Of a stretch of DNA of 62,645 nucleotides, positions 20,153 through 51,411 are shown in pieces. The notes beneath the pieces were generated by a model. The model saw only the letters and a list, made by a program, of their open reading frames with translations, did not search any database and had not been told where the DNA came from. This DNA comes from a virus (Duplodnaviria > Caudoviricetes). The stretch spans positions 1 to 62,645 of IMG/VR virus record IMGVR_UViG_3300028883_000508. One strand, 5' to 3'. The stretch's first letter is position 1, and each line of letters opens with the position of its first letter. A program made the position numbers and the translations under genes.

Positions 20153-21331
20153 CTAACATACATCTTTAAAAATGATACTAGGTATCACAACATCACTATA
20201 CATGTCAAGTTTATTTTTAAATGGTTTAATTACATCAAGACAATATTTAATTTCCTCTTTTATTGTTCTTGTAGGTACATATCCTTTGCTTGTAAGATTT
20301 TTAGTGATAAAATTATAATAATGATCCCCTGTAAATTCTGTTCTTGGTCCTTCAATCCATTGAGCAGTTGCATCAATTCCTATTTCCTTGCTTACATTAA
20401 TTACCATTGTAGCTATATCATTCATTGAATGCCATTCACTTAATTGATTCCATGTTTGAACTTCACCAGATTTAGCAGGATTATTAAGAGCAATCATTAA
20501 TGCTTGTATGCAATCATTTAGGCTTAAAAAGCTTCTCTGATGCTTTCCTTCACCATAAACTGTCAAAGGAATACCTAATATAGCCTGTACGATAAATCTA
20601 TTTAAGACTGTTCCACCAGCTTCATCAAAATCAAATCTAGAAAAAATATTATATTTATTAATTTCTGTTGTATATGAACCAAAAACAACACCTTGCATTA
20701 TATCAGTACATTTAAGTTTCCATGCTCTAGTAAGATAATCAATCAAATATGTTGATGCTACTTTACTTGTATGATATATACTTCCTGGCTTTCTTGGAAA
20801 TATAACTCTATTACTTTTCCTTCCTTTATGTTCAAAAGAAAAAAATCCTTCTTCAATATCAACATTTCCATAATGATCATATTCACCAGCAGTACCAATA
20901 GTAATATAATGACAATCAGGACAATGTTTTTTAATTGACCACAAAATATTATTAGTTCCTATAATATTATTATTCAATACTTTTTGTGCTTTTTCCTTTG
21001 ATATCATACTATATGGACCTGAAGGATTATGAGCAAGATTAAAAATTGCTTCTGGTTTATAATCTCTAACACATTGATCAAAATATGTATCTTGACCAGC
21101 AACATCAACATCTTCAAAATAAAATGGAACATCAGTCCTATAAAAATCTCTAAATCTTTTTATTTTTTCATTCATATCAAGAATAGGAATTGCAGATATT
21201 GACACCATATCTTCTTTAATCCATTTTCTTCTCCAAAAATTATCAAAACCAAAAACATCATATCCTTCACTCAATAATCTTTGAGTTAAAGCATTACCAA
21301 TATAACCATCACAACCAATAACAAATATCAT
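20153..21331 (-). CDS. sqdB: UDP-sulfoquinovose synthase (SqdB/Agl3-like extended SDR)
   Basis: GCDGYIG, PSGPYSM, GTAGEY, DIEEG, PGSIYHTSK, TDIMQGVVFG, RFDFDEAGGTVLNRF, PLTVYGEG, NQLSE. Confidence 0.85.
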   Translation of the reverse strand: MIFVIGCDGYIGNALTQRLLSEGYDVFGFDNFWRRKWIKEDMVSISAIPILDMNEKIKRFRDFYRTDVPFYFEDVDVAGQDTYFDQCVRDYKPEAIFNLAHNPSGPYSMISKEKAQKVLNNNIIGTNNILWSIKKHCPDCHYITIGTAGEYDHYGNVDIEEGFFSFEHKGRKSNRVIFPRKPGSIYHTSKVASTYLIDYLTRAWKLKCTDIMQGVVFGSYTTEINKYNIFSRFDFDEAGGTVLNRFIVQAILGIPLTVYGEGKHQRSFLSLNDCIQALMIALNNPAKSGEVQTWNQLSEWHSMNDIATMVINVSKEIGIDATAQWIEGPRTEFTGDHYYNFITKNLTSKGYVPTRTIKEEIKYCLDVIKPFKNKLDMYSDVVIPSIIFKDVC

Positions 21332-25118: not shown

Positions 25119-25470
25119 ATTCTTCACTAAATTTTCTCCTTATATCTGGTGGAAATAACTTAAAAAAACTTCTATAATCTGAATCACTACATATATTAAA
25201 CATATCTGCCATTATACACATTATTTCAATTGTAGAAATATTATTTCCATGTTGTCTTTTTAATTTATTATATATTTTTTTTACTGATTTTTTTAAAGAT
25301 AAGTGTATTGATTGTCTTGATATGTTTAATATATTTCCTATATCATCTCCTGACATATGTTTTCCATTTTCAAAAGCTACACATTCTATTTTATCTTTAT
25401 TTTTTTCAAAAAATAAAGTATAATCTTTATTAGATACAATTTTTTTCATATTTATTCCTTTATATATCAC
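25102..25470 (-). CDS. HTH DNA-binding protein (sigma region 4-like)
   Basis: MSGDDIGNILNISRQSIHLSLKKS. Confidence 0.6.
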   Translation of the reverse strand: MIYKGINMKKIVSNKDYTLFFEKNKDKIECVAFENGKHMSGDDIGNILNISRQSIHLSLKKSVKKIYNKLKRQHGNNISTIEIMCIMADMFNICSDSDYRSFFKLFPPDIRRKFSEEYERRN

Positions 25471-28294
25471 ATGATCCTGTACTGCAAGTTCTTTCTTCTT
25501 GATCTTGTATTATATTACCTTCCTTTATATATTTTTTTATTTCTTTTTTAGTTAATGGATTTAATATCTGTCCTTCTCTTGAACCATCAACATAAACAGT
25601 ACATCCTTTTAAATCTCTAATATACTCAAGTAGTAAATTACTTAATTGTTCTGATTTAAATTCTTTTGGGCAATTAATAGTTTTTGATACAGCACCATCA
25701 ACATATCTTTGAACTGCTACTTGTGTTTCAAAATGATCTTCAGGTTTTAAATTAAAACTATCAACATACCAATCTGGTGTTTTTTCATTATTTTCTATTA
25801 TTTTTTTATAGATGGGATGAATATATGCTCTATCACTTATCTCATCATGCCTTAGATATGCTTTACAGAATAATGGTTCAATGCTACTTGTTACTTCTGG
25901 TAGTAATGATATAGTTCCAGTAGGTGCTATGGCAAGCAATGTAACATTTCTAATTCCATATTTTTTAATATCCATTCTTGTTTTTGCTGGTAATGATTTA
26001 ATGAAGTGTGCTTTTGAATACTCTCTACTATCAAATTTTGGGAAAGGTTCTTTTTCTTCTGCAAGTTTAATGGAAGACTCATAAGCAAAATTTCTTATAT
26101 TCTCCATTAAAGTATTAGTGACTCTTATTGCTTCTTGTGATCCATATTTAACCCCCTTTGAAAATAAATACTCAGCAAGGCCCATAACACCTAATCCAAT
26201 TCTTCTGCCATCAAATGCTTTACGTTTTACATCTTCAATAACATATCTATTTACTTGAATAATATTATCTAAAAATCTAACAGCATTATGAACTGTTTTT
26301 TCCATTAATTGCCAATTAGTATTAGTTTTTCCTGTAATAAAATTTGGTAATACTAAACTACCAAGACAGCAAACCCCATGAGCACCTAATGGAACTTCTC
26401 CACAAGGGTTGGTACTATTATGAACAACAATACCATTAGCTATTAAAGAATGTGTAACATTAGTTTCAACATCATATACTTCTTGTTCTCCTAAAGACTT
26501 AATAGATTTAACTTTAAACATTCCATAATATTTTTCATTCCATATACTTCCAAATTCATAATCATTTAAAATATTACTTTTTTCTGAATGTTTACTACCA
26601 ATTAATTTTTTAAAAGCCATACATGATAATTTTCTACTAATATTAACAGTATATGCAGTAAAAAGTTTTTCATTTAATTTTGATATCCTTGATCCAATAG
26701 ATGATGGAATACCAAATTCATTTAACATTATTTGTATTCTTTCTGCTATATTTTTCTTTGATGTTACAAGAGTTATTTTTTTACCTTTTCCTGTATTTCC
26801 ATTACCAACTCTTTGTATACTACCATCTGAATCATATAAACCAGAAATAAAACCACGTTTAAAACTTGGAGATTCTTGTAGAACATCATCTGATATAAAT
26901 TTACTGCTTCTTCTTGTTCCTCTCATATATCCATATTCATTTACATCACAATAATAACCCCATCTTTTAAAATACTCAACCACATCTTTAGATGAAGTTG
27001 TTAATTCAAAAGATTTACTTCCATTAGAACTTCTATGCCAATTTGTATGTCTACCTGAAAGAATTAAATTATTAATTTTTGTTTCAACAAAATTCATCAT
27101 ATCTTCTTCATTTTCATTAAAACAAAAACCATATTGTGTTGTATTATTATTTTTACAAATCCATCCATCTCCAACTAATAAACCAAGTAAATAACCATTA
27201 TCAAATTCTTTTTCATTTTCTAAATTATTGACAAAATGTTGAGAAATAGAATTTTGAACATACATATAATCTTCTTTGACTTTTAAATTTTTTACTTCTT
27301 TCCATCCATCTTTTGTCCATACTTTATGATTATCTGTAAGTTTTATTTTTTGATTATTTTGAAGTTTAATTTCAAATATTTCTTTTACACCTGATTTAAA
27401 ACCAATTCCATCTTCAATAAATGTTCCTTGAGAACCAATAACTCTTAAATCAGATATTGTTTTTACTTTCTTATCTACCAAATCTTTGATAGGAATAAGC
27501 CCTTTGGTAGTTGAAATAAGAGTATCACCAGTAAAACAAAGGATAGGATCAAAATAATAGCTGTTATTTGATCTAAGATTATCCCAATTAATTAATCCTG
27601 GTTCTGCACATTTAACCATATTAGTTAAAATTAAATCCCATATTTCTCTTGCTTTAAGTGTAATCCATTGTTTATTTCCCCATTTTAAATTCCAATCACT
27701 ATCTGCTTCCACAGCTTCAAGAAAATCTTCTATTACTCCAACTGAAATATTGAAGCAATTAAGTTCTCCATCTACTAATTTTGCATTTATGAATTTAATG
27801 ATATCTGGATGGGTTACAAGCATCATAGCTAATGCAGCAGCACGTCTAGCTCCACCAGTTTTAATACAATTAGCACCTGCATTTGCCCATTTTAGAAATG
27901 AAATTGGTCCTGAAGATTCTCCACCTTTTTGAATAATAGGTGCATTTTCTGGTCTTAAAAAGGATGCATTGCATCCAACTCCCCCACCTTCCGACCAAAG
28001 AACTCCACAATTTTTTTGAAAATCACCAATTTGATCCATTGAATCTTCTAATGGTTCAACATAACAATTAAATAATGATCCTCTTGGTCTTCCTATATTT
28101 CTTAAAATTCTTCCACCTGGAAGAAATAACATATTGTATACATCTGAAGCAAAAATATCAGTCCATTCTTTAAAATTTGGTTCTATTTGTGCTCCACCTA
28201 TACCAACTCTTTCTGATAATTCTTGCCATGTTTCATTTTCATACATAGCATATCTACTTTTTAAAATAATATTCGAATTTTTACTTAAAACCAT
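25460..28294 (-). CDS. nrdJ: Class II (B12-dependent) ribonucleotide reductase with intein
   Basis: FLPGGR, LFNCYV, GGARRAA, FNISV, TNPCGE, RIGLGVMG, IAPTGT, VSKTIN, C-terminal CSTGSCDI. Confidence 0.93.
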   Translation of the reverse strand: MVLSKNSNIILKSRYAMYENETWQELSERVGIGGAQIEPNFKEWTDIFASDVYNMLFLPGGRILRNIGRPRGSLFNCYVEPLEDSMDQIGDFQKNCGVLWSEGGGVGCNASFLRPENAPIIQKGGESSGPISFLKWANAGANCIKTGGARRAAALAMMLVTHPDIIKFINAKLVDGELNCFNISVGVIEDFLEAVEADSDWNLKWGNKQWITLKAREIWDLILTNMVKCAEPGLINWDNLRSNNSYYFDPILCFTGDTLISTTKGLIPIKDLVDKKVKTISDLRVIGSQGTFIEDGIGFKSGVKEIFEIKLQNNQKIKLTDNHKVWTKDGWKEVKNLKVKEDYMYVQNSISQHFVNNLENEKEFDNGYLLGLLVGDGWICKNNNTTQYGFCFNENEEDMMNFVETKINNLILSGRHTNWHRSSNGSKSFELTTSSKDVVEYFKRWGYYCDVNEYGYMRGTRRSSKFISDDVLQESPSFKRGFISGLYDSDGSIQRVGNGNTGKGKKITLVTSKKNIAERIQIMLNEFGIPSSIGSRISKLNEKLFTAYTVNISRKLSCMAFKKLIGSKHSEKSNILNDYEFGSIWNEKYYGMFKVKSIKSLGEQEVYDVETNVTHSLIANGIVVHNSTNPCGEVPLGAHGVCCLGSLVLPNFITGKTNTNWQLMEKTVHNAVRFLDNIIQVNRYVIEDVKRKAFDGRRIGLGVMGLAEYLFSKGVKYGSQEAIRVTNTLMENIRNFAYESSIKLAEEKEPFPKFDSREYSKAHFIKSLPAKTRMDIKKYGIRNVTLLAIAPTGTISLLPEVTSSIEPLFCKAYLRHDEISDRAYIHPIYKKIIENNEKTPDWYVDSFNLKPEDHFETQVAVQRYVDGAVSKTINCPKEFKSEQLSNLLLEYIRDLKGCTVYVDGSREGQILNPLTKKEIKKYIKEGNIIQDQEERTCSTGSCDI
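26417..27538 (-). mobile_element. Intein (374 aa) with LAGLIDADG homing endonuclease in NrdJ
   Basis: CFTGDT...GIVVHN|S-TNPC; YLLGLLVGDG and FISGLYDSDG. Confidence 0.93.
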
Positions 28295-31429: not shown

Positions 31430-31469
31430 AAAAAAAAATAGGAAGATTGATTACCAATCTTCCTATTTT
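31430..31469 (-). terminator. Intrinsic terminator closing the ubiquitin-like operon region
   Basis: 15-bp perfect stem AAAATAGGAAGATTG/CAATCTTCCTATTTT with T run. Confidence 0.8.
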
Positions 31470-31542: not shown

Positions 31543-31609
31543 TTCTTCTAATTTAATATTCTTCTAATTTAATATTCTTCTAATTTAATTTAATTTAATT
31601 TAATTTAAC
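31543..31609. repeat. 16-bp tandem repeat (about 3 copies) followed by (TAATT)n
   Basis: Unit TTCTTCTAATTTAATA. Confidence 0.85.
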
Positions 31610-31698
31610 TTTAGCATGGGAAGAAGGATTATATTATTTAATTCATAATGCTTCGACGGATGCCATATTTTAATCATTTTTAATATTCTTTATTTAAA

Positions 31699-31770
31699 GT
31701 ATTTTAGTATTTTAGTATTCTATTTTAGTATTCTATTTTAGTATTCTATTTTAGTATTCTATTTTAGTAT
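31699..31770. repeat. 13-bp tandem repeat (about 5 copies)
   Basis: Unit TATTTTAGTATTC. Confidence 0.85.
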
Positions 31771-31813: not shown

Positions 31814-33136
31814 CTACTTTTTTTCAATTTGATTATAAGGATAAGCATCTCCATTATTTGAAAAATGATATCTCTTTCCATGAGTAGTAGTTACAGATAC
31901 AGGATTAGTAGTTTTACTAAGATATTCAATAGGCTTATCGTCTACCTTTCCATCTATAATTTGTTGTGTATTATCACTCATAGTTTTTAGAAAAAATTCA
32001 TTTTTCAATTGTTTTTCTTCATCAGTCGGTTTTTCTTTTTTTGGTTTTACTTTTGCTTTAACTGTAATAAGACCACCACAAGGAGTTTTTACTCTTGCTA
32101 TACCAACTATATTAAACCCCCCTGTTTTCCTATTTCTACCTGCCAAAAGACTTAAATTATGATTGCTATTGATAAATGCATTATCATGTCCACTAAAAGA
32201 TGGATTATTTTCATCTCCTGCTCCCATTTCATGATGGGAATGAATTACACCAATAATAGATAGTTTATTAAATTCCTCATTATTAACTTTATCAACAAGA
32301 ACACTAGATGTTCTTTGATCAGGAAGATAAAGATCATTTACATGATATACATCATCTTTTACTTCACCAATAAGATAAGCAAGCCACTCTCTTGCACCTG
32401 CCCATTTCATGTACATCATTGCTTTTGTTTTTGCTTGTTTATTCATAAAAACTTCAACAAATTTTTTGACTTTACTGCAAGCAGTAACACGATCAATTTC
32501 TACTTCCCAAAATGTTTCTTGTTTTTTAAATTGATCCCACATTAAAGGTTGTTTTGTTTTTTTAACTTTACCAAAACCAAAACCAGGAAATTTTTGTGGA
32601 ATATTCGATTCATTATTTTTATCTAAATCAAAATCATTTTCAGTTAATTCTTCTATCGGATTTTCATTTCTAATTTTTTCTTGTTTTTCAAACCATACAG
32701 TATCACTATTTTCATCAAGTACTTTTCCAGTTATCATATAGTGATACTCGTTTAGTATATTTCTTACTTGATTCAATTCCAATCCAAATGCAATTGCAAT
32801 ATCTTGGATAGACCACCCACTTTCATTTGCCATACTTATAATTTGTATTTCAATTTTATCAGGTGTAACAGATTTATCATTTTTCATATGATTTACCATT
32901 CCTTTCATTCTTTCTTTTGTTTTTTGTAATTTATTATTTAATTTTCTTTTACGTTTCATTTTATTTTTATGTTCTTTTCGAACTCTTTGAACATGTCTTT
33001 CAGAAACTTGAAGTTCATTAACAATAATACTAGTAGGTGTGTTTACATCTTTTTCAAGATACTCAATAATAGATTGTTTTTTATTAACATAACCTTTCAA
33101 TTTTAAATCCTTTCTCAATTGTTTAATATACCCCAT
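31814..33136 (-). CDS. JAB/MPN+ metalloprotease (deubiquitinase-like) with N-terminal HTH-like segments
   Basis: EWLAYL...IHSHH...FSGHD JAMM motif; TSIIVNELQVSERHVQRV and WSIQDIAIAFGLELNQVRNIL. Confidence 0.85.
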   Translation of the reverse strand: MGYIKQLRKDLKLKGYVNKKQSIIEYLEKDVNTPTSIIVNELQVSERHVQRVRKEHKNKMKRKRKLNNKLQKTKERMKGMVNHMKNDKSVTPDKIEIQIISMANESGWSIQDIAIAFGLELNQVRNILNEYHYMITGKVLDENSDTVWFEKQEKIRNENPIEELTENDFDLDKNNESNIPQKFPGFGFGKVKKTKQPLMWDQFKKQETFWEVEIDRVTACSKVKKFVEVFMNKQAKTKAMMYMKWAGAREWLAYLIGEVKDDVYHVNDLYLPDQRTSSVLVDKVNNEEFNKLSIIGVIHSHHEMGAGDENNPSFSGHDNAFINSNHNLSLLAGRNRKTGGFNIVGIARVKTPCGGLITVKAKVKPKKEKPTDEEKQLKNEFFLKTMSDNTQQIIDGKVDDKPIEYLSKTTNPVSVTTTHGKRYHFSNNGDAYPYNQIEKK

Positions 33137-33163
33137 GATATCACATCATGGGGTATATGTCAA
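33126..33163 (-). promoter_or_regulatory. Internal sigma70 promoter overlapped by a perfect 14-bp inverted repeat
   Basis: TTGACA-17-TATCAT; arms ATATACCCCATGAT 33126-33139 / ATCATGGGGTATAT 33145-33158. Confidence 0.65.
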
Positions 33164-33171
33164 TTCTTTTT

Positions 33172-33759
33172 TTACCTATCAAATCGAAATAAATGTTTAA
33201 CTGAAGAAATACATTCAGCATTAGGATATTTCATGATTTTTGCAACCGCAAGAGCAGCAACTATAACAGCAGGAACAACCCATGATGGAACTACTGTATA
33301 TCCATTGGTAGATTCCCCCCATTCAGAAACAGTATTATGAATCCCAAATCCTTCTCCATCATACCCTGCCTTAAAATATTTTGATCCCATTTTTTTAGCA
33401 ATGGCTTGATTTTCAATTTGTGATTTTCCATCATCCGTACAATCAACAACCCAATCAAATCCACTTGTAATATCAGAGAATTTAAATGGATAAGAATAGA
33501 CAGTAGCTTCATCTCTTAAAGATATAATAGCCATTTTTGTAATATCTGCTTTGTTTTTTCCAAGATATTTATATGGAATATCAAGACGATTGAGATTATG
33601 TTCTTCTAGAATGTCAGGATCAAATAATTCAAGATGATCTACCCCACTCATTGCAAGAAATTTAGCTACCCAATATCCAATACCACCACAACCAACAACA
33701 GCAACTTTTTTAGGATGATTTAATTTAAGCTTTTCTTGCCTATTATACAAATCAGACAT
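33172..33759 (-). CDS. ThiF/E1-like ubiquitin-like activating enzyme
   Basis: LYNRQ, VVGCGGIG, DPDILEEHNLNR, KNKA, VVDCTD. Confidence 0.92.
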   Translation of the reverse strand: MSDLYNRQEKLKLNHPKKVAVVGCGGIGYWVAKFLAMSGVDHLELFDPDILEEHNLNRLDIPYKYLGKNKADITKMAIISLRDEATVYSYPFKFSDITSGFDWVVDCTDDGKSQIENQAIAKKMGSKYFKAGYDGEGFGIHNTVSEWGESTNGYTVVPSWVVPAVIVAALAVAKIMKYPNAECISSVKHLFRFDR

Positions 33760-33776
33760 TTTAAAAATCCTTTCAA

Positions 33777-34673
33777 TTAAATTGTTTGCCAAACATCTTC
33801 AAGTTCTTCATTATCTTCAAGTTCTACAGTAGATGGTTCTACTTCATCAACTTTTTTAACATTTCTGATTAATGTTTCTATCCTTGGTAAACCAGCAGGA
33901 TTTCTTATTGCAAGACTATTATTATTAATTGTTTCTAAAACAGCTTCAGCATCTTTAGCACACAACAAGATATCATCTGGATGATTCCATTTTTTATCAT
34001 ATTTCCAATTACCCCAACAATCACCATGCCCCATTTGATGATAATGCTGAAATGATGGTAATTGTAATCCTCTTGTTGTTGGTTTTTTTGTTGAAACAGA
34101 AGTTATTTTACTTCCTTTTGTTTTTATTAAAATAATCATATCTTTTTTCATTCTTGATACAAGTCTAGAAGGAATTGGTTTTCTAACTTTATCACCTACA
34201 TTTGTATCATTATATACAATAAACCTTGGATTATATACACCTCTATAAATCCAAGTCAATTCATCATTTTCTTTTCCTTTAACAATAGAAAGTCCTTTAA
34301 GTAAATGAGCTTCTGTTATATCAGGCATCATAGCTGCTTTACTATACTTTTTTTTCATTTGAGCTTCTTTTCTATCAAGCTCTTGTTGTTTTTGTTGATG
34401 TAATATCAATAATTGATTGATTTTAGAATTGATTTTATCTCTAATTCTTTGCTGTTGAGTATTTAACTTTTCTTTGAACTCTTTACGCAACTTTTCTTCA
34501 ACATTTTCATCACTGACAATTTCTAAATCAGTAAATTTAAATGTTTTTCCACCGAAAGTTAAAGAAAGACCTTCTGCTTTAAGATCATCAACTGAAATTG
34601 ATTCAAGTTCAGCTAACATTTCTTCATGTCTTGACTTTACTTCAGTATCAAAAGTTGAGAATACATCAGACAT
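33777..34673 (-). CDS. Putative prokaryotic E2-like conjugating enzyme with N-terminal coiled coil
   Basis: FQHYHQMGHGDCWG resembles the E2 HPN...GxxC(L/W)G site; between Ubl and E1. Confidence 0.6.
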   Translation of the reverse strand: MSDVFSTFDTEVKSRHEEMLAELESISVDDLKAEGLSLTFGGKTFKFTDLEIVSDENVEEKLRKEFKEKLNTQQQRIRDKINSKINQLLILHQQKQQELDRKEAQMKKKYSKAAMMPDITEAHLLKGLSIVKGKENDELTWIYRGVYNPRFIVYNDTNVGDKVRKPIPSRLVSRMKKDMIILIKTKGSKITSVSTKKPTTRGLQLPSFQHYHQMGHGDCWGNWKYDKKWNHPDDILLCAKDAEAVLETINNNSLAIRNPAGLPRIETLIRNVKKVDEVEPSTVELEDNEELEDVWQTI

Positions 34674-34714
34674 TATATATAACTCCAATCAAAAGTATTT
34701 TTTTTTATTATAGA

Positions 34715-34752
34715 TAGTTTAATGGGGAGATAATTCTCCCCATTCCAAACTA
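34715..34752 (-). terminator. Stem-loop between Ubl and E2 (partial terminator or mRNA stabiliser)
   Basis: AATGGGGAGA-4 nt-TCTCCCCATT plus outer TAGTTT/AAACTA; no U tract on the sense strand. Confidence 0.6.
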
Positions 34753-34766
34753 ACTAACTTTAATTA

Positions 34767-35045
34767 CTATCCTGCTTCATCAAATGGCCTAATTTCAACA
34801 GACATTTGATCGGTTACTTCAGCAGGTGCCGAACTTGGTCGAACTTCAGTACCATTCAACCACACCTTGAATTTACCGAAACCTGCTTGCAATGCAACAG
34901 ATTGAACGGATTGAAGGAAAGGTGCTCCAACTTCAAGGTTCTGATAAGAACCATTAACAAGAATACTTGCTCCATCGGGCCTATCAGTGGTAGGAACATC
35001 ATCCATATCATCATTACCCATGTCACCGTCAAAAAAATCATTCAT
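34767..35045 (-). CDS. Ubiquitin-like (beta-grasp) protein ending in Gly
   Basis: Acidic N-tail, SILVNG, helix FLQSVQSVALQAG, FKVWLNGTEV, SVEIRPFDEAG-stop; AAGGAG upstream; first gene of the E2-E1-JAB operon. Confidence 0.75.
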   Translation of the reverse strand: MNDFFDGDMGNDDMDDVPTTDRPDGASILVNGSYQNLEVGAPFLQSVQSVALQAGFGKFKVWLNGTEVRPSSAPAEVTDQMSVEIRPFDEAG

Positions 35046-35101
35046 CTTAATTTCTCCTTTTTTAGTTAATTTGGTTCGAAAACCATTTTTATTTTAACAA
35101 T

Positions 35102-35191
35102 CTTATATCACACTTTACACAAGATTGTCAACAACTTTTTTAATCTCAATTTCTAAAAAACAATCATATTCTAAATATAATTGTTTGTCAA
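35102..35191 (-). promoter_or_regulatory. Two tandem sigma70-type promoters upstream of Ubl
   Basis: TTGACA-17-TATGAT (35191-35163) and TTGACA-18-TATAAG (35131-35102), each within an identical AAAAAGTTGTTGACAA, 60 bp apart. Confidence 0.7.
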
Positions 35192-35200
35192 CAACTTTTT

Positions 35201-37585: not shown

Positions 37586-37666
37586 ACTATAACACATCTT
37601 GAATGAAATTGTTAAATAAAAAATTTTTAAAAAAAATTAACAATTAATACTTCTTTATGTTATAGT
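37586..37666. promoter_or_regulatory. Back-to-back TTAACA-N18-TATAGT promoters at the strand switch
   Basis: Minus 37615-37586 and plus 37637-37666, both with TGT before the -10. Confidence 0.65.
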
Positions 37667-37699
37667 AATAAAAAATAATAATATAATGGAGAATTAATT

Positions 37700-38140
37700 A
37701 TGGATAACGATGAATTGAAAGAAAAATTCATAAGGTTTTTAAGAGAACAATCAAAGAAAAATGAAAATAAAGATGGTACAAATAAATTTTTTAAAAGAGC
37801 ATTTTGGTTTAGTAGATGCCTTAGAGTTTTAAATGTAAATAAATTAGGTCAAGATCTTATTGGTTATATACAAGAAGAAACATGGGGTCAATATAGTAGT
37901 AAATGGGTCAATATAGGAAATTATTATGAAATAGATAAAAAATGTTTTTATTCTACAAAATCAAATAATGGAAATAAAACAAAAAGAGCTATTGAAAATT
38001 TAAAATCATTAGGATTGATAGAATTTAAAAATAGTAATGGATTAAAAGAAGATATATGTATTGCTATAGATTTTAATACAGATAATTGGATTTTAAATGA
38101 AAAACAAAGAAAAATTATTGATATAATTACAAATAAATAA
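37700..38140 (+). CDS. Winged-helix protein resembling the lambda-O-type initiator N-domain
   Basis: YIQEETWG...TKRAIENLKSLGLIE...IDFNTDNW; iterons follow directly. Confidence 0.5.
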   Translation: MDNDELKEKFIRFLREQSKKNENKDGTNKFFKRAFWFSRCLRVLNVNKLGQDLIGYIQEETWGQYSSKWVNIGNYYEIDKKCFYSTKSNNGNKTKRAIENLKSLGLIEFKNSNGLKEDICIAIDFNTDNWILNEKQRKIIDIITNK

Positions 38141-38192
38141 TGAAATATATTTCATATATATACTTTATATATATTTATCAGTATATACAAAA

Positions 38193-38262
38193 CATATACT
38201 GACAAAATGTCCGTATATACTGACAAAATGTCCGTATATACTGACAAAATGTCCGTATATAC
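38193..38262. repeat. Three 21-bp direct repeats (iteron-like)
   Basis: TATATACTGACAAAATGTCCG x3 (one mismatch) plus a partial copy; inverted half-site TCAGTATATA at 38178-38187. Confidence 0.9.
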
Positions 38263-38341
38263 GCACTTAACTTAGAGGAATTATTATGAATTTTTACACC
38301 ATAGAGTTTAGAGAGTTAAGAGAGAGTATATTAAAGTTTAA

Positions 38342-38417
38342 ATCTAGTTCTAGAACTAGATATAATTTACTAGCGTAAATTATAAAGGGATTTTCGAACT
38401 AAAGTTCTCAATCCCTT
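38342..38417. repeat. Three consecutive palindromes/hairpins
   Basis: ATCTAGTTCTAGAACTAGAT; TATAATTTAC-tagc-GTAAATTATA; AAGGGATT...GAACT-aa-AGTTC...AATCCCTT. Confidence 0.8.
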
Positions 38418-43069: not shown

Positions 43070-43357
43070 ATGCCAAGATGTGTAAAATGCAAGGGAATGT
43101 TTCCACCTAATTATGTGGAAGTTATTCCAGATTCAAATCCAAATTTAGAAGGAGAATATCCAAAACATTGTTTTTTTTGTAAAAATAATGTAGATGAGGT
43201 AGAAAGAGAAACGGAACATAATTCAGGAAAATATATAAAATATACTAAAAAACAATGTTTAGAAGATTATAGAATATTTTTAGCAAAATTAAAAGATAGT
43301 AAAAATGTTAAAGATATCATGAATAAAACTAATTCTTCGGGGATCATTCTCAATTGA
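43070..43357 (+). CDS. Zinc-binding hypothetical protein
   Basis: CVKC...CFFC. Confidence 0.7.
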   Translation: MPRCVKCKGMFPPNYVEVIPDSNPNLEGEYPKHCFFCKNNVDEVERETEHNSGKYIKYTKKQCLEDYRIFLAKLKDSKNVKDIMNKTNSSGIILN

Positions 43358-44451
43358 AAAAATTAAAGCCTGTCAAAAAACCTGCTAAACTTGGTTTTCT
43401 TAGCTATATTGGTGATACTCAAGGTTGTGGTACAATTCGTGTAATCTACCCATATTTTTTATTAAATCATGTTAGAAAAAAAAATTTAATGTGTCATTCT
43501 ACTTATTTACAAAATTATGTTTCTGATATAGATTGGTATAATCCTTTTACTTTTGTTCAATTTCAAAGAAGTGCAAATGAAGCTCATCTAAAGTTAATTC
43601 AGCATTTTAAAAATACAGTACAAAAGAAATTTCCTATTCCTGTAATATATGAAATAGATGATATGTTATTTAATATACCTAAATGGAACTATGCATCTTT
43701 ATATTACAATCAATCAGAAGATATTGTTAAAAAAATAATGGGTGCTTGTGATGGTATGATTACTTCTACTTCAAAGCTGAAAGAAGTATATTCACAATAT
43801 TGTAAAAGAATATCTGTTATTCCTAATCATTTGCCTAAATTTATTTGGGGTGAAATATATCCTGCTCATGAATATTATAATAGAAAAAATAAAGTTAAAA
43901 TATTATGGGGTGGTAGTCAAAATCATTTTGCAATGGAAAAAATAGTTGGTAAGGAAAATAAAGGTGGTGATTTTGGGAAAGATCTTATGTATTTTATCAG
44001 AAAAACAGTAGATAAATATGAATGGCATTTTATGGGTGCAATTCCTGAAGAATTGAACGATATAAAAAAGAAAGTTAATTTTCATCCTTGGCATAGTATA
44101 TTTGAATATCCTTCAGCATTGAAATCAATTGAGCCTGATATATGTCTTGCACCTTTACAAGATGTTGAATTTAATCATTGTAAAAGTAATATAAAATCTT
44201 TGGAATATGCTGCTTGTGGTGCTGTTGGTGTTTATTCTGATGTTACTCCTTACAAATTTCAATCTTTAAGATCTAAAACTGATGAAGAAATGATTGCTCA
44301 TATTGAAAAGCTTGCAGAAGATGTAACTTATAGAGAAAAGATTTATAAGAAAGATTATCAAAGAGTTAAATCTCAATTATGGTGGGAAGAAAATAATAAT
44401 ATCAATAAGTATATAAATACATATCTTTCTATGTTTGGACAGTGTTTATGA
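43354..44451 (+). CDS. Glycosyltransferase (GT-B, GT4-like)
   Basis: GCGTIR, YEIDD, VIPNHL, WGGSQNH, DICLAPL, FNHCKSNIKSLEY. Confidence 0.85.
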   Translation: MKKLKPVKKPAKLGFLSYIGDTQGCGTIRVIYPYFLLNHVRKKNLMCHSTYLQNYVSDIDWYNPFTFVQFQRSANEAHLKLIQHFKNTVQKKFPIPVIYEIDDMLFNIPKWNYASLYYNQSEDIVKKIMGACDGMITSTSKLKEVYSQYCKRISVIPNHLPKFIWGEIYPAHEYYNRKNKVKILWGGSQNHFAMEKIVGKENKGGDFGKDLMYFIRKTVDKYEWHFMGAIPEELNDIKKKVNFHPWHSIFEYPSALKSIEPDICLAPLQDVEFNHCKSNIKSLEYAACGAVGVYSDVTPYKFQSLRSKTDEEMIAHIEKLAEDVTYREKIYKKDYQRVKSQLWWEENNNINKYINTYLSMFGQCL

Positions 44452-44660
44452 TGAAAGAAAAAATATGGATATCATGTGATAATTGTAAATTACAATGGAT
44501 ATGTAGAGTAAAACATGGGTTTGAAGAACCATTACTTTTTACAAGACATGTTACTGATGATTATCCACAATTAGCTAAAGAATTTTATGAATTATTGGCT
44601 AAAAATTGTAATAATCGTTCTTTATATTTAGAAGAAATCGAAAGTGAGGAAGATGATTAA
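44448..44660 (+). CDS. Small Cys-containing hypothetical protein
   Basis: CDNC...C...C. Confidence 0.6.
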   Translation: MMKEKIWISCDNCKLQWICRVKHGFEEPLLFTRHVTDDYPQLAKEFYELLAKNCNNRSLYLEEIESEEDD

Positions 44661-45271
44661 TGTCTGTAACTCCTGAACATATTGAAGAAATTTATTTTCA
44701 ATTTAGGAAAGCTCAAGCGGATTTTAATAATCGTGGATATAGAATGCCGAAAGATTTTGAACTTCATTTTAATACAAAATTTAAGGAACAAAATAAGAAA
44801 GCATTAATAAAAATAACTGGATGGTTTTTAACTAAATGGCAAAATATTAATCCATATGATTATTTTATATGTGGGTTTGAACTTTATAAAAGTTTTACTT
44901 ATATGAAATTTTTTGATGAAAAGATATTATTACTTTATAAAACAAGAGATAAAAATAAAAAAAGAAATGTAAAGATAACAAAAAAAAAGTTAATTGAATC
45001 TGCTTGTTTTGTTAAAAAGTGGATGAATGAAAATAATGGTACTTTATATGATTATATAAATAGTAGAGAGGGGTATCAAAGAATAGCAATAGATCATTAT
45101 TTGAAAGATAAAATTGATGCATCTTTTTTGGTATTTTTGATTAAAAAAGGAATGATATTAACTGATAATGAAAGAAGTGTTATTCCTTATGTTCAAGCAA
45201 ATTTTAGAAAGATTACATTTGCATTAAACGATATGAAAGATTTTTTGAAAAAATTAGAGAGGAAATTATGA
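44660..45271 (+). CDS. Hypothetical protein, possibly gp59-like helicase loader
   Basis: 203 aa basic helical protein near gp32; resemblance is weak. Confidence 0.4.
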   Translation: MSVTPEHIEEIYFQFRKAQADFNNRGYRMPKDFELHFNTKFKEQNKKALIKITGWFLTKWQNINPYDYFICGFELYKSFTYMKFFDEKILLLYKTRDKNKKRNVKITKKKLIESACFVKKWMNENNGTLYDYINSREGYQRIAIDHYLKDKIDASFLVFLIKKGMILTDNERSVIPYVQANFRKITFALNDMKDFLKKLERKL

Positions 45272-45444
45272 CAACACAACTTAAAGGAGATATGATTAGA
45301 GATATACCTAAAGGAGATATGCTAAAAAATAGACTTCCAGAAGGTGAAATGTTAGTTTCTGAAGGACCAACAGGAAATGCCTTATGGAAAAAGAAAAAGA
45401 AATTAAATGAAAATGATAATGAAAACAATCAGTTAAATGAATAA
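45268..45444 (+). CDS. Hypothetical protein (58 aa, absent from the ORF track)
   Basis: GAGGA then an ATGA overlap; MTTQLKGDMIRDIPKGDML...NQLNE*. Confidence 0.6.
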   Translation: MTTQLKGDMIRDIPKGDMLKNRLPEGEMLVSEGPTGNALWKKKKKLNENDNENNQLNE

Positions 45445-45555
45445 TTTTAAATCCCATCAAAATCCTAAATTGTGTAATTTTTTACATATAAATTGTGTAA
45501 AATGGTAGAAAACTTCCTACATCACTGAAAATATTAGAAAAAATCAAAATAAGTA

Positions 45556-45584
45556 TTGACAATATATTTTTGTTATTATATAGT
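45556..45584 (+). promoter_or_regulatory. Sigma70-type promoter
   Basis: TTGACA-17-TATAGT. Confidence 0.7.
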
Positions 45585-45619
45585 TATCCCATAATGAATG
45601 ATTAATGAAGGGGGTGATT

Positions 45620-45703
45620 ATGGTTAAGTATGTTTGTTATTTAATGATTTTTTTGAATTTTATCATCATTGGTTTTATTCATATTAATCAAATATTGGGC
45701 TAA
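45620..45703 (+). CDS. 27-aa hydrophobic peptide
   Basis: Strong AAGGGGGTG then MVKYVCYLMIFLNFIIIGFIHINQILG*. Confidence 0.45.
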   Translation: MVKYVCYLMIFLNFIIIGFIHINQILG

Positions 45704-45739
45704 AAAAACAAAAACAAAAACAAAAACAAAAACAAAAAC
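45704..45739. repeat. (AAAAAC)6 simple sequence repeat
   Basis: Six exact hexamers before the RBS of the gene at 45761. Confidence 0.9.
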
Positions 45740-45760
45740 AAATTTGAAAGGAAAAGAATT

Positions 45761-46834
45761 ATGAAACAGAATTTTTTTATCGTGTGTTTGATTTTGGCAA
45801 TGGTAGCTTTTGCTGGTAATTCAGCAATGGCAGGTGGTATTAATATTCATAATAATACTCATCATAATACAACTAACTTTGATTATTCAACAGATAATCA
45901 AGGTGGTCAAGGTGGTCAAGGTGGTCAAGGGGGTAATGCTGTTATTGAAAAAGGTGCAGTAAAGAATTGTAATACCAATTTGAATGCAAACAAGAATACC
46001 AATTTGAATGCAAACAAGAATACCAATTTGAATACAAACAAGAATACCAATTTGAATACCAATTTGAATACAAACAAGAATACCAATTTGAATACCAATT
46101 TGAATACAAACAAACAGGGTCAACTTCAGGGTCAACTTCAGGGTCAACTTCAGGGTCAACTTCAGAAAGCAGAAGCAAATAACAATGGCAATAATAATGG
46201 AAATATGAATGGAAATATGAATGGTAATAATTCCAATAATGCCAAGTTGACTGTTAATCAGAATTTTGAGGATAAACGAGATCATATTACTGGTCCTGCA
46301 ATTCTCAAATCTGATTCTAAACTTACTGATGGAAAGAAGTTTGTTGCTAAAACTGTTGGTTCAATTTGGGAAAGGGTAAATGGTATTTCAGAGAAACAAG
46401 CTAAAAAGATTCTCAAAGGTGCCAGTGATAGTGATATTGAAACAAAAGTTACTGTTCTCTATGAAATGAATTATCGTTCCAATTATATTACCAAGGGGGT
46501 TAGTGGTGATTATATGGGAACAATTATTGTATTTCCTGATGGAAATGATGTTTCAGTAGGGGGAATGGAAGCAAAAGCTATTTTGAAAGCAATTGATTTG
46601 GGTGCTACACATATGGATAGGATTCACATGAGTACAGGTAAAGTTGCTCATGGAGATTCTTGGAATATTGGTATAGGTGGTGGGGCATCTATCATGGAAG
46701 ATGGTGGGGATCTTGCTATTGCTCCTAACGGTGGATTGGGCATTGGTGAAGCATCTGCATTGAATGAATTTTTACCTGAAATGGTATTTGAAGTCTATAA
46801 TGATCCAAGTTTCATTAAACCATTGAAGAAGTAA
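45761..46834 (+). CDS. Secreted protein with N/Q-rich low-complexity repeats
   Basis: Signal peptide ending AMA; (QGG)3, NTNLN(A/T)NK repeats, (QGQL)4. Confidence 0.75.
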   Translation: MKQNFFIVCLILAMVAFAGNSAMAGGINIHNNTHHNTTNFDYSTDNQGGQGGQGGQGGNAVIEKGAVKNCNTNLNANKNTNLNANKNTNLNTNKNTNLNTNLNTNKNTNLNTNLNTNKQGQLQGQLQGQLQGQLQKAEANNNGNNNGNMNGNMNGNNSNNAKLTVNQNFEDKRDHITGPAILKSDSKLTDGKKFVAKTVGSIWERVNGISEKQAKKILKGASDSDIETKVTVLYEMNYRSNYITKGVSGDYMGTIIVFPDGNDVSVGGMEAKAILKAIDLGATHMDRIHMSTGKVAHGDSWNIGIGGGASIMEDGGDLAIAPNGGLGIGEASALNEFLPEMVFEVYNDPSFIKPLKK

Positions 46835-46859
46835 AATATATTTTCATAATAATCTCCTG

Positions 46860-46895
46860 AAAATGGTGGGGTTTATCCCCATCATTTTTTTTGTT
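46860..46895 (+). terminator. Intrinsic terminator
   Basis: AAAATGGTGGGG-tttat-CCCCATCATTTT plus T run. Confidence 0.85.
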
Positions 46896-46914
46896 TTTTT
46901 TTTTAAAAAAATAT

Positions 46915-46944
46915 TTAACATTTTAATTCAATATGTGTTATAGT
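46915..46944 (+). promoter_or_regulatory. TTAACA-N18-TATAGT promoter upstream of gp32
   Basis: TTAACA 46915, TGT, TATAGT 46939. Confidence 0.6.
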
Positions 46945-46998
46945 ATAAAAAAATAAAAAACTTGTATTGTTTATTACATACAGGGAAGGAGAAGTATA

Positions 46999-48006
46999 AT
47001 GAGTAAATGGATTAAAAAGGAATTATTTGAAAGTTTTGTAAAAGAAAAGATTAAAGAAAAAGATACAACTCAAGGTGGATTTAGAAGATCGGATTTACTT
47101 TGGGAAACTCCTGAAAAGGGTACTATTGAACAAGCAAAAGTCTATGAAGGTAGATTTGTTCCAGATCCTACAGGAGAGTTTTATAAGAGGTACTACTATC
47201 ATTTTTGGCAATCAGGGGATAATTGGATTTTTGTTTTATGTCCAAAAACTCATGATTTTAAAGAATATTGTCCATTCTGTTCTTCAACAGCTAAACTTTA
47301 TAATGGTTCATCTCAAGACAAGAAACAAGCATATAATCTTAAACGAAAAGAAAGATATGTTGGTAATTGGTATATTGTGAAAGATCAAAGAGATGATGAT
47401 AGAGATTCAGAAAAGAAAGTTGTTGGTAAAGTAAAACTTTATGAATTTCCATCTGTTGTAGAAAAAAAATTGAAGAAAGAAATTACAGATAGAGATCAAG
47501 GATATGGTCCTCAAGTTTTTGATCCATCAGAAAATGGCAGAAACTTTATTCTTAATGTTCTTTCTACAAAGAAACAAGAAGATGGTAGACAATGGCCTGA
47601 TTATTCAAATTCTGATTTTTCAAGAAGACAATCTTCTTTGGGTACTGAAGAAGAAATTGATGCTTTTATGAAAACATGTGTTAATCTTAATGATTATATT
47701 AAGTCAATGGAAACGGATAAGGATAAACAGGTAGAAATTCTTAAAAATGAATTTCTTTGGGAACTTGTTGAAGCAGAATGTCTTGAAAGGGGATATTTAG
47801 ATGTAGAAACATCTACATCTGCATCTAATCAAGAAGAAAAGAAAGAAGAAAAGAAAGAAGAAAAGAAAGAAGAAGATTCTTTTGATTCTGGAAAAGTTGA
47901 AAAGAAAGAAGAAAAGAAAGAAGAAAAGAAAGAGGAATCAAAACCCGAAAAATCAGAAGATGATTATGATGATGATGATTTGCTTGCAGAATTAGATAAT
48001 TTATAA
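46999..48006 (+). CDS. gp32: ssDNA-binding protein, T4 gp32-like
   Basis: RFVP, HFWQ, CPKT...CPFC, GKVKLYEF, FDP..GRNF, PDYSNSDF, acidic tail DDDDLLAEL. Confidence 0.9.
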   Translation: MSKWIKKELFESFVKEKIKEKDTTQGGFRRSDLLWETPEKGTIEQAKVYEGRFVPDPTGEFYKRYYYHFWQSGDNWIFVLCPKTHDFKEYCPFCSSTAKLYNGSSQDKKQAYNLKRKERYVGNWYIVKDQRDDDRDSEKKVVGKVKLYEFPSVVEKKLKKEITDRDQGYGPQVFDPSENGRNFILNVLSTKKQEDGRQWPDYSNSDFSRRQSSLGTEEEIDAFMKTCVNLNDYIKSMETDKDKQVEILKNEFLWELVEAECLERGYLDVETSTSASNQEEKKEEKKEEKKEEDSFDSGKVEKKEEKKEEKKEESKPEKSEDDYDDDDLLAELDNL

Positions 48007-48021
48007 AGGAGATAGTTTGCT

Positions 48022-48303
48022 ATGGAAAAATCTGAATGTAGTGGAGAGATAAATGAATTAACCTTAATAGATGAAAAAAATATTGCATGGCAAACAATAA
48101 GATGGAAGAATAGAAGGAGAATGGCATGGTGTTCTGTATGGGCATTGTTATCTATAATCCTTCTATTCTTTTTTGCTCCTATTTCTGATACAAGATTGTC
48201 TATTATTGTTGAACCTATATCATTGATGGCATTTGTTTTTGGTGGTGTTATTGCATCATATATGGGTTTTACTGCAATGGAAAAATGGAAAATGGGTAAA
48301 TAA
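48022..48303 (+). CDS. Two-TM membrane protein (holin-like)
   Basis: WKNRRRMAW followed by two hydrophobic helices. Confidence 0.55.
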   Translation: MEKSECSGEINELTLIDEKNIAWQTIRWKNRRRMAWCSVWALLSIILLFFFAPISDTRLSIIVEPISLMAFVFGGVIASYMGFTAMEKWKMGK

Positions 48304-51409: not shown

Positions 51410-51411
51410 TT

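Follow-up and report, generated by a model that had tools for sequence, protein, structure and literature searches.

Locus and gene content

The locus raises the question of whether a bacterial virus encodes a ubiquitin-like (Ubl) conjugation pathway of its own, as the first-pass annotation had proposed for four neighbouring genes. The window, that is the whole stretch of 62,645 nucleotides that was analysed, was found to be a T4-like myovirus record, in line with its earlier reading as phage DNA. The four genes described there as co-oriented were recovered as four open reading frames, all on the minus strand.

34767..35045, minus strand: candidate ubiquitin-like modifier, 92 aa, ending EIRPFDEAG-stop
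33777..34673, minus strand: E2-like protein, 298 aa (open reading frame 33777-34688, 303 aa)
33172..33759, minus strand: minimal E1, a 195-aa ThiF-type adenylation domain (open reading frame 33172-33792)
31814..33136, minus strand: HTH and JAB/JAMM metallopeptidase, 428-440 aa

The gene order Ubl-E2-E1-JAB was found to be conserved in 5/5 IMG/VR loci retrieved through the E2-like protein and, up to the contig limits, in 10/10 metagenome loci. With the neighbouring clamp-loader gene as an independent anchor, the cassette was present in 11 of 12 related IMG/VR loci, each time at the same site directly after the sliding-clamp gene, and the identity of the E1 dropped in parallel with that of the clamp loader. 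The synteny search that had been suggested as a check thus returned a conserved order and a conserved place. The surroundings of the cassette are a block of replication genes: those for the clamp and nuclease flank it, and an RNase H gene is also among its neighbours. The carriers, as a group, are uncultured large T4-like marine phages. No close relative was found among GenBank phages, and the papers searched gave no description of a cassette of this kind in a phage. Metagenomic relatives are numerous for all four proteins; at a threshold of E <= 0.001, the small, middle and JAB proteins were found to have 83, 99 and 160 homologues, respectively. Judged by these counts and by the invariant motifs described below, the conservation of the cassette genes is far beyond chance.

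The candidate modifier

The small protein was found to contain an acidic, disordered-looking N-terminus followed by a conserved core and an invariant P-x-D-[EV]-A-G at the C-terminus. The A-G pair was invariant in all 38 aligned homologues and terminal in 34 of them, whereas the other four carried 4-7 extra residues after the Gly. The pair was likewise kept in the small protein of 10/10 loci, with a short tail after the Gly in two. The Gly is thus kept throughout, either already free or placed such that cleavage would expose it. A beta-grasp modifier is predicted from the language-model features of ESM-Atlas, in which the nearest named clusters were those of ThiS (0.90-0.91), the one line of evidence that points to this fold. 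No Pfam family was matched, ThiS (PF02597) not even at E 10; a profile search of PDB sequences with the small protein returned no Ubl; and hhalign against E. coli ThiS and MoaD gave a probability of 0.1.

The E1 adenylating enzyme

The E1 gene likely starts at the ATG at 33759, with GAAAGGA ahead. The protein was found to contain the motifs GCGGIG, NLNR and DCTD, on which its assignment to the ThiF/E1 group had been based, and that assignment was borne out by Pfam ThiF (PF00899; 3.7e-22, 79.1 bits against a cut-off of 28.1), by hhalign with E. coli ThiF (96.4%) and by the invariance of the motifs. The ATP/Mg site of ThiF/E1 enzymes is formed by a Gly-rich loop, an Asp after strand 2, NxxR, a Lys and the Asp of DxTD; the corresponding RQ, GxGGxG, DPD, NxxR, K and DCTD residues were invariant in 6/6 orthologues. 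The best PDB sequence matches were PaaA (1.6e-9) and MccB (4e-9) followed by SUMO E1 (1.7e-8), and these matches span the shared Rossmann part only (residues 19-110).

In canonical E1s, the catalytic Cys is located in the crossover loop or inserted into it, as described in PMC11601596. The alignment of the six orthologues was found to contain neither a crossover-loop Cys nor CxxC zinc motifs; the sole invariant Cys lies in DCTD and none follows further on. An identity as a canonical ubiquitin-activating E1 was rejected on this ground. The cassette is thus not a canonical E1-thioester set, and its description as the minimal ubiquitination set does not hold in the canonical form.

The E2-like protein

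The gene of the middle protein likely starts at the ATG at 34673, with a GGAG site ahead, as previously annotated. The protein contains HYHQMGHGDCWG. In the numbering of the 303-aa open reading frame, it consists of a small N-terminal domain, a 58-residue helix and a UBC-like domain (residues 119-290), followed by an acidic tail in which D298 and W300 do not vary. The residues H215-Y216-H217 and C224 (HYH-x6-C motif) were invariant in 37/37 aligned sequences, the Y-H and the C in 23/23 sequences with distant relatives included, and C224 was retained even in relatives at 20-30% identity. In the modelled secondary structure, the H-Y-H and the Cys seven residues on fall in the loop that leads from the last strand to the long helix. 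In E2s, the HPN and the catalytic Cys occupy the same loop.

By prediction, the C-terminal domain of the middle protein is an alpha/beta fold that resembles E2/UBC folds and nothing else comparably, and the invariant Cys follows the H-x-N/H position in the modelled loop as in E2s. The check suggested for this gene, for a UBC fold with a Cys in the active site, accordingly gave a UBC-like fold with an invariant Cys in the expected loop. No family was matched in Pfam, PHROG, NCBIfam or PADLOC; no Pfam family was reached at E <= 0.1, including UQ_con and Prok-E2; and 47/47 distant relatives had no family above the cut-off. The family comprises 226 representative clusters without a Pfam entry and is therefore sizeable and unannotated. 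The H-x-H...D-C residues could also form a metal site.

The JAB protein

The JAB gene likely starts at the TTG at 33100, with GAAAGGA ahead. The protein was found to contain a LuxR/homeodomain-like HTH at residues 96-131, which is absent in more distant orthologues, followed by a JAB domain at about 205-360. The JAMM motif reported for it (E...HSHH...SGHD) is intact, and E250, H299-S-H301-H302 and S315-G-x-D318 were invariant in 22/22 aligned homologues. The window protein scored 19 bits against Prok-JAB (PF14464; cut-off 25), and this family was recorded for 17 among the 120 JAB homologues listed. The modifier had been read as already ending in Gly, with the JAB protein as a deconjugase. The terminal Gly held for most homologues but not for those with tails; since such short tails occur, the JAB protein probably acts in processing too, besides its role in deconjugation.

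Promoter-like sites, hairpins and terminator-like element

The following elements were found around and between the genes.

35163..35195, minus strand: promoter-like site P1, GTTGTTGACA, 17-base spacer, TATGAT, preceded by an A-rich stretch
35102..35135, minus strand: promoter-like site P2, second GTTGTTGACA copy, TTGACA, 18-base spacer, TGaTATAAG
34711..34756, minus strand: stable RNA hairpin in the spacer that separates the small gene from the E2-like gene
33117..33165, minus strand: hairpin between the E1 and JAB genes, in overlap with a TTGACA promoter-like site
31435..31469, both strands: terminator-like hairpin, 345 bases past the JAB gene

Ahead of the first gene, the sequence AAAAAGTTGTTGACAA occurs in two copies at a distance of 60 bases. 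P1 was found with 11/12 matches in a sigma-70 scan; P2 was absent from the list of that scan, whose rule demands T at the last base. The scan of the region gave 24 promoter-like sites against 28.7 expected and is therefore, taken alone, not above chance. TTGACA boxes upstream of the first gene were found in 8/10 related loci, with tandem copies in 5/10. Of the two tandem TTGACA promoters that had been annotated, both boxes are thus present and recur in related loci, but the second fails the scan rule.

The hairpin at 34711..34756 (-22.2 kcal/mol, z -5.0, 0/200 shuffles as stable) is possibly an attenuator or stabiliser, and two loci (L001 and L002) were found to contain hairpins of other sequence in the same spacer. 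The hairpin at 33117..33165 reached -22.6 kcal/mol (z -6.1); the promoter-like site that it overlaps is TTGACA-17-TATCAT (11/12 matches) with a TG ahead of the second hexamer. The hairpin at 31435..31469 is probably the end of the transcription unit.

Comparison with known systems

Membership of the cassette in the described bacterial systems was considered and rejected in each case. BilD has the IAD-AAD-CYS architecture described in PMC11601596 and PMC10557695 and is a large enzyme that includes a zinc site and a catalytic Cys domain, whereas the phage E1 is one 195-aa adenylation domain with neither zinc site nor CYS domain; the assignment to Bil was dropped on this architecture. Bil is moreover host-encoded and targets phage tails, whereas the cassette is phage-encoded, with a fixed, core-like place and early promoters, and no sequence match was found between Bil and the phage E2-like or small protein. 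The Bub (6E) systems have a fused Ubl-E2, a JAB-E1 or E2-E1 and a DUF6527 serine protease, and their E2 has Ser/His and forms oxyesters. The phage genes are four and separate, the E2-like protein has an invariant Cys, and DUF6527 was not found among the 49 Pfam-scanned open reading frames; Bub was set aside on these three points. In type II CBASS, Cap2 is an E2-E1 fusion that conjugates the CD-NTase, with no Ubl, and a nucleotidyltransferase and an effector are present; the phage cassette has a separate small modifier and neither of the latter. The PADLOC matches of the cassette span the E1 adenylation part only, and type II CBASS was rejected because clamp, nuclease and RNase H genes, and not those for a CD-NTase and an effector, adjoin the cassette.

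The cassette resembles ThiS-ThiF and MoaD-MoeB in that a Gly-ending small carrier adjoins a ThiF-family enzyme of about 200-250 aa. It differs from these pairs in having an E2-like protein and a JAB in place of acceptor enzymes, in the A-G terminus of the carrier, and in the E1 itself (195 aa without CxxC motifs, against 251 aa for E. coli ThiF). UBA5-UFC1-UFM1 and Atg7-Atg3-Atg8 are minimal eukaryotic cascades whose E1s have a catalytic Cys and which need E3-like factors; their likeness to the phage cassette is one of shared folds. The TAPI Ubl of lambda/T1 with the gpK JAB-NlpC is, by the account in PMC1779556, the only Ubl-JAB pair long known in phages. That pair belongs to a tail module without E1/E2, in which the Ubl is cleaved and not conjugated, whereas the present genes belong to the replication block and follow early-type promoters. 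Asgard archaeal viruses (Nidhogg) are also viruses of prokaryotes with ThiF/E1 homologues; in 10.1101/2021.07.29.454249, these are E1 homologues only, proposed to exploit host Ubl and E2, whereas the phage described here has the whole set.

Proposed pathway and alternatives

The best explanation, to which a probability of about 0.6 is given, is an early-expressed, vertically inherited and self-contained phage Ubl conjugation cascade, with proteins as the presumed acceptors. Gene content, conservation, synteny and the ThiF and JAMM motifs are observed and the E2-like fold is modelled, and the fold of the modifier, each chemical step and the target are inferred. The cassette would be expressed early in infection from host-type promoters. 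The 195-aa E1, which probably forms homodimers as other minimal E1s do, would adenylate the C-terminal Gly of the modifier with ATP. Because the crossover region of the E1 has no cysteine, the E2~Ubl thioester would arise either by direct attack of Cys224 of the E2-like protein on the acyl-adenylate or, in the manner of Bub systems, by way of an invariant E1 residue, Tyr or Ser. The E2-like protein would then pass the modifier to a target amino group without a separate E3, and targeting could be by its N-terminal coiled-coil part and its acidic D-[VI]-W tail. The JAB peptidase would trim the C-terminal tails of some homologues and reverse the conjugation. Neither an E3 gene nor a target was assigned for the cassette, and this was counted against the conjugation reading.

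The nearness of the E1 to ThiF/MoeB in family models and of the small protein to ThiS in the Atlas suggests an unlikely alternative in which the small protein is a ThiS/MoaD-type carrier. It would be adenylated by the E1 and converted by a host persulfide to a thiocarboxylate, for thio-modification, with a nucleotide, tRNA, cofactor or cysteine as possible acceptors. Sulfur would be relayed over the Cys of the middle protein, and the release of an adduct would fall to the JAB, as it does to Mec+ in the case of CysO. An E1 without Cys suits this alternative, as sulfur-carrier E1s need none for adenylation, and PMC1779556 describes clusters of JAB, ThiS-like and E1 genes with a link to sulfur assimilation. 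The window does contain an APS kinase gene (5920-6294), but it lies 28 kb off on the opposite strand and adjoins a deaminase, and PAPS could be put to use in a sugar-modification cluster that the window also has. The first-pass annotation had noted no sulfur genes nearby, which stands for thiamine, molybdopterin and thiolation enzymes in the 49 Pfam-scanned open reading frames (ThiG, MoaE, TtuA/NcsA-like, rhodanese and cysteine desulfurase were not found) but has to be qualified for the APS kinase. The carrier ends in A-G and not G-G, and the middle protein is E2-like, a fold that is not known as a sulfur relay. A still less probable peptide-modifying enzyme of the MccB/PaaA or RiPP style would modify the small protein chemically at its C-terminus, as a phosphoramidate or thiolactone or by cyclisation, with the JAB as a maturation peptidase; the product would be a modified peptide or protein and not a tag. 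Very little weight is given to this alternative. PaaA and MccB are the top PDB matches of the E1, just ahead of SUMO E1, and ThiF-like RiPP enzymes are described as an expanding class; these matches are, however, confined to the Rossmann part, the substrate would be no short variable-core peptide but a 92-aa protein that is conserved, its core included, and this alternative does not account for the E2-like partner and its invariant Cys.

The machinery may also be real and the acceptor not a protein lysine. The Atg8 lipidation arm consists of a minimal E1 and E2 with no E3, a layout that the phage set matches. On this reading the modifier would be joined to a lipid head group, in the way that Atg7-Atg3 acts on Atg8, or else to an amine of the cell envelope, to a nucleotide or to DNA. 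The place between the clamp and nuclease genes and the DNA-binding-type HTH domains on the JAB were counted in its favour; this HTH part is, however, missing in more distant orthologues, the E2-like protein has no sequence sign of a lipid or nucleic-acid site, and the chance of a non-protein acceptor is considered low. The characterised bacterial Ubl systems are all antiphage in the accounts of PMC11601596 and 10.1101/2023.09.04.556158, and this was counted in favour of a counter-defence role, in which the cassette would mainly serve to disarm Ubl-based immunity of the host (Bil, Bub, type II CBASS). The JAB would strip host modifiers from phage proteins, and the E1, E2 and Ubl would compete with or mis-load the host enzymes. 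Early-type promoters suit the timing of anti-defence. Such genes are usually patchy, however, whereas the cassette is fixed in place and its divergence tracks the clamp loader; stripping would need the deconjugase alone; and no sequence likeness to Bil/Bub components was found except in the shared adenylation domain, which leaves this role improbable.

A bolder form of the conjugation cascade is put forward as speculation, with the odds well against it. A complete Ubl tagging cascade would be a vertically inherited part of the replication block in a clade of large T4-like phages, in which an E1 of 195 aa that has no catalytic Cys, and would be the smallest known, passes the adenylated modifier straight to a new E2 family. 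It would tag the replication proteins encoded next door, e.g. the sliding clamp, or else host proteins for take-over, with the acidic D-[VI]-W tail as a docking peptide. If true, clamp tagging would be a viral parallel to the ubiquitination and SUMOylation of PCNA.

Significance

The transfer of an adenylated Ubl to an E2 without an E1 thioester is directly testable with this Cys-less E1 and the very small E1-E2 pair, and small ATP-driven ligases of this type are of interest as protein-ligation tools. Eukaryotic viruses exploit ubiquitin, and the characterised bacterial ubiquitination-like systems (Bil, Bub and type II CBASS) are host-owned and antiphage. A conserved set that is complete on the phage side would reverse this picture and show that bacterial viruses tag proteins as well.

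Gene layout and transcription signals

The four genes of the cassette were found on the minus strand at the positions assigned by the first-pass annotation, and a terminator-like hairpin lies beyond the last of them.

34767-35045, minus strand, small gene (92 aa, candidate Ubl)
33777-34673, minus strand, gene of the middle, E2-like protein (298 aa)
33172-33759, minus strand, ThiF-type E1 gene (195 aa)
31814-33136, minus strand, ORF of the JAB protein (HTH and JAMM)
31435-31469, reads on both strands, terminator-like hairpin, 345 bases after the JAB gene at the end of a repeat-filled spacer

Judging by ribosome-binding sites and orthologue starts, translation of the middle protein probably begins at ATG 34673, that of the E1 at ATG 33759 and that of the JAB protein at TTG 33100. 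The tandem promoters proposed earlier were recovered 5′ of the first gene as two AAAAAGTTGTTGACAA copies spaced 60 bases apart. The first copy belongs to a sigma-70-type site with 11/12 matches and the second reads TTGACA-18-TGaTATAAG; in DNA so rich in A+T, the sigma-70 scan as a whole found no more sites than chance would give (24 against 28.7 expected). TTGACA boxes with A-rich upstream stretches were found to precede the first gene in 8 of the 10 related loci, five of which contained two copies. We infer that these promoters fit T4-type early transcription by the host polymerase.

A stable hairpin was found 3′ of the small gene (-22.2 kcal/mol, z -5.0) and another between the E1 and JAB genes (-22.6 kcal/mol, z -6.1). 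In two related loci (L001 and L002), hairpins of other sequence were also present in the spacer that separates the small gene from the E2-like gene. The 430-base non-coding spacer 3′ of the JAB gene was found to contain three tandem arrays (31543-31770), made of a 13-base unit repeated 4.8 times with 100% matches, a 16-base unit repeated 3.9 times and a 5-base unit repeated 12 times.

E1 protein

The E1 was found to match Pfam ThiF at 3.7e-22 and was aligned with E. coli ThiF by hhalign up to the DCTD motif with a probability of 96.4%. The PADLOC Cap2 models and the NCBIfam ThiF/MoeB models matched the same N-terminal part, and the best PDB sequence matches (PaaA, MccB and the SUMO E1) all fell within residues 19-110. 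The expected ATP-site residues were all conserved in six orthologues, in which the sole invariant cysteine was that of DCTD. The 86 residues after DCTD contained no Cys and no CxxC pair, and were found to contain invariant Tyr154 and Ser159. Judged from its sequence, this E1 cannot form the E1 thioester of a canonical cascade. Among the systems compared, the Cys-less trait was common only to the Bub E1s, in which an invariant crossover-loop Tyr is described as holding the modifier as an oxyester (PMC11601596).

Middle protein

The middle protein had no match in the Pfam, PHROG, NCBIfam or PADLOC families, and 99 homologues of similar length were found. With a profile of its C-terminal domain, a search of 1.84 billion proteins retrieved 226 representative clusters (99 at E <= 1e-10), and none of the 47 distant relatives tested contained a Pfam family above cut-off. 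The candidate active-site motif was found to contain invariant H215-Y216-H217 and C224 in the homologues, and the Tyr-His and the Cys were still invariant in relatives of 20-30% identity. The secondary structure of the predicted model locates these residues in the long loop that leads from the last strand into the main helix; E2s have HPN and the catalytic Cys in such a position.

The full-length model gave only coiled-coil matches to its long helix in Foldseek and VIA, and the C-terminal domain was therefore folded alone. Foldseek returned nothing below E 0.1 for the domain model. In BFVD, the E2-like model matched four phage proteins, all uncharacterised and none from a named family (probability 0.87-0.99, E 0.002-0.03). 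Among PDB sequences, the single match to the E2-like profile was at chance level. On the predicted model, we accept an E2-like fold for the middle protein, with a candidate for the catalytic Cys, and class it as a new E2-like family and not as a member of a curated one.

The acidic C-terminal tail (33777-33815) contained D298 and W300, invariant in 37/37 homologues, within the motif D-[VI]-W, after which x-x-[ILV] is frequent. This tail looks like a short docking motif and may resemble SSB-type acidic tips or Atg8-interaction motifs.

The distant members of the family (P0385-P0449) were found to be 320-613 aa in length with other N- and C-terminal domains, including SH3-like GD-x-V segments and CxxC pairs. 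Their contigs measure about 35-45 kb, and one cluster, of 53 members, has a partial copy in a bacterial MAG. Individual members used as single-protein queries had no match in IMG/VR or in GenBank phages.

Small protein

The alignment of the small protein was found to contain a variable acidic N-terminus and a conserved core, followed by an invariant P-x-D-[EV]-A-G end. The first-pass annotation had described a Ubl that already ends in Gly, with the JAB acting as a deconjugase. The sequence ends at the Gly in 34 of the 38 homologues, which agrees with that description, but the remaining four continue past it for 4-7 residues, and the JAB would then probably act in maturation too; among the ten loci, tails after the Gly were found in two. 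The sequence pattern of these ends is that of a modifier probably activated at its terminal Gly and matured by a peptidase in some lineages.

No match to a Ubl family was found in Pfam, in a six-frame search with ThiS (PF02597) or in the PDB profile search, and hhalign comparisons with E. coli ThiS and MoaD were negative. Only the language-model features of the ESM-Atlas placed the small protein beside clusters of a Ubl kind, named ThiS (0.90-0.91, with 179-186 shared features). Its putative identity as a Ubl is the weakest link of the reading.

JAB protein

The JAMM motif reported earlier was found to be complete, with E250, H299-S-H301-H302 and S315-G-x-D318 invariant in 22 aligned homologues out of 160 found, and its loop is longer than the textbook spacing. 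The protein of the window scored 19 bits, just below the Pfam cut-off of 25, and PF14464 was present on 17 of the 120 homologues listed. The N-terminal half contained HTH motifs (HTH_23 at 1.8e-5); against the PDB, the single sequence had no match and the profile gave only weak LuxR-type HTH matches. The HTH is not a core feature of the protein, because zinc-ribbon-like or short segments replace this half in more distant orthologues.

The N- and C-terminal additions of the orthologues in three related loci (L001 4637-6232, L004 7373-8458 and L013 4065-5627) were very different. Additions of the orthologues included zinc-ribbon-like CxxC pairs, HTH domains, long acidic tails and a 300-residue extension.

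Phage and genome context

The window covers an entire linear IMG/VR virus record (62,645 bases), with a G+C content of about 27% and a CheckV completeness estimate of 24%. It was found to contain T4-type structural genes (major head protein, portal and prohead protease), T4-type replication and nucleotide genes (primase, ribonucleotide reductase, RNase H-type exonuclease, sliding clamp, both clamp-loader subunits and a gp32-type SSB) and four tRNA genes. The major head protein was only 33-35% identical to that of the nearest deposited phages, which are T4-like cyanophages and Methylophilales phages, and contigs bearing homologues of the cassette proteins reach 232-240 kb. These data make the window a fragment from the genome of a large bacterial myovirus of T4-like type, uncultured and deeply branching. 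Other features of the window were as follows.

5319-6294, plus strand, dCMP-deaminase-type gene with a short APS kinase gene immediately behind it (5920-6294; PF01583, 4e-22)
16949-19120, minus strand, 723-aa radical-SAM protein with intein-like matches (Hint, intein-splicing, LAGLIDADG) in its first half
20153-21331, epimerase/dehydratase gene
25460-28294, minus strand, ribonucleotide reductase large subunit (944 aa), of which residues 361-447, lying between its two reductase parts, match an endonuclease PHROG
about 37600-38400, switch of transcription direction and GC skew, with genes to the left almost all on the minus strand and genes to the right on the plus strand
43354-57318, plus strand, sugar-modification block with glycosyltransferases (43354-44451 and 48617-51409), three Methyltransf_24 genes, a rhamnosyl O-methyltransferase/CmcI gene and a DegT-type aminotransferase gene
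57566-58267, plus strand, papain-family cysteine peptidase gene (PF00112, 2.2e-15)

The radical-SAM and reductase genes, both of replication or nucleotide metabolism, appear, from these matches, to be interrupted by inteins. The cumulative GC skew reaches its minimum at 36-38 kb, and the divergent point adjoins the clamp-loader genes. The sugar block and the epimerase/dehydratase gene suggest that the phage carries out glycan or DNA-sugar modification. APS kinase, which activates sulfur, is an unusual enzyme for a phage to encode; its role could be in sulfation of the glycans that the sugar genes suggest, or it could be relevant to a sulfur-carrier role of the cassette.

Linkage and distribution

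The order clamp loader, clamp, small gene, E2-like gene, E1 gene and JAB gene was conserved in all five IMG/VR loci found through the E2-like protein, and the order from clamp loader to JAB was the same in 10/10 metagenome loci as far as their short contigs extend. The related IMG/VR loci required alignment queries, and single-protein IMG/VR scans with the E2-like protein and with the clamp returned nothing. A separate, independent search with the clamp loader as anchor yielded 15 loci, 12 of which contained a clamp loader at least 44% identical to that of the window (five of these 12 contigs were identical to ones found earlier). The cassette follows the clamp gene in 11 of the 12, including one contig that stops within the E2-like gene and two with about 1.2 kb inserted; the twelfth contained other ORFs for 1.6 kb up to the contig end. 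The insertions (L027 4046-5233 and L030 11335-12570) separate either the small gene from the E2-like gene or the clamp from the small gene. The remaining three loci, in which clamp-loader identity is about 30%, lack the cassette.

Among 50,697 GenBank phage records, neither the E2-like protein nor the two distant members of its family used as queries had a relative; the DNA had no match, and the E1 gave just remote ThiF matches.

The identity of the E1 drops from 72 to 42% alongside that of the clamp loader, from 78 to 44%. Because of this parallel fall and the fixed place, the cassette is, on sequence comparison, an old and vertically kept part of the replication block of the clade and not a sporadic accessory gene.

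Alternative readings and known systems

A sulfur-carrier role is possible for the cassette, and is favoured by a ThiF-type E1 without Cys beyond DCTD, by the likeness of the small protein to ThiS in the Atlas and by the APS kinase gene at 5920-6294. Such a role leaves the E2-like protein unexplained, however, and no acceptor enzyme, rhodanese or desulfurase was found among the 49 ORFs scanned, in line with the earlier remark that no thiamine, molybdopterin or tRNA-thiolation genes lie nearby, though the APS kinase gene is present. Joining of the modifier to a non-protein acceptor, peptide modification of the MccB/PaaA kind and counter-defence against host Ubl systems stand as further rivals. 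A tail-assembly Ubl-JAB role was rejected for the wrong module and the wrong timing.

The cassette is nearest to Bil in its parts list and to Bub in its E1 chemistry, and membership of Bil, Bub or type II CBASS was rejected since their defining features are lacking. The phage precedents are the lambda-type TAPI-gpK pair, which comes without an E1 or E2 (PMC1779556), and E1 homologues alone in Asgard viruses (10.1101/2021.07.29.454249). Full-text literature searches found no description of a phage Ubl-E1-E2-JAB set; the supplementary tables of the Bil and Bub papers could list phage or prophage copies.

Proposed mechanism

The simplest reading of the mechanism is a Ubl conjugation cascade, to which we give a probability of about 0.6. 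The E1 would adenylate the terminal Gly of the small protein, and the acyl group would be taken by Cys224 of the E2-like protein, either directly or via the E1 Tyr or Ser. The modifier would then be transferred to an amine on the target without an E3, and the JAB would mature the tailed precursors and reverse the conjugation. The hairpin 3′ of the small gene could fix a high ratio of modifier to enzyme. Because of the early-type promoters, the fixed position next to the clamp genes and the E2-like protein's invariant acidic tail (D-[VI]-W), the replisome or early host proteins are reasonable guesses, and no more, for the targets that the phage may modify.
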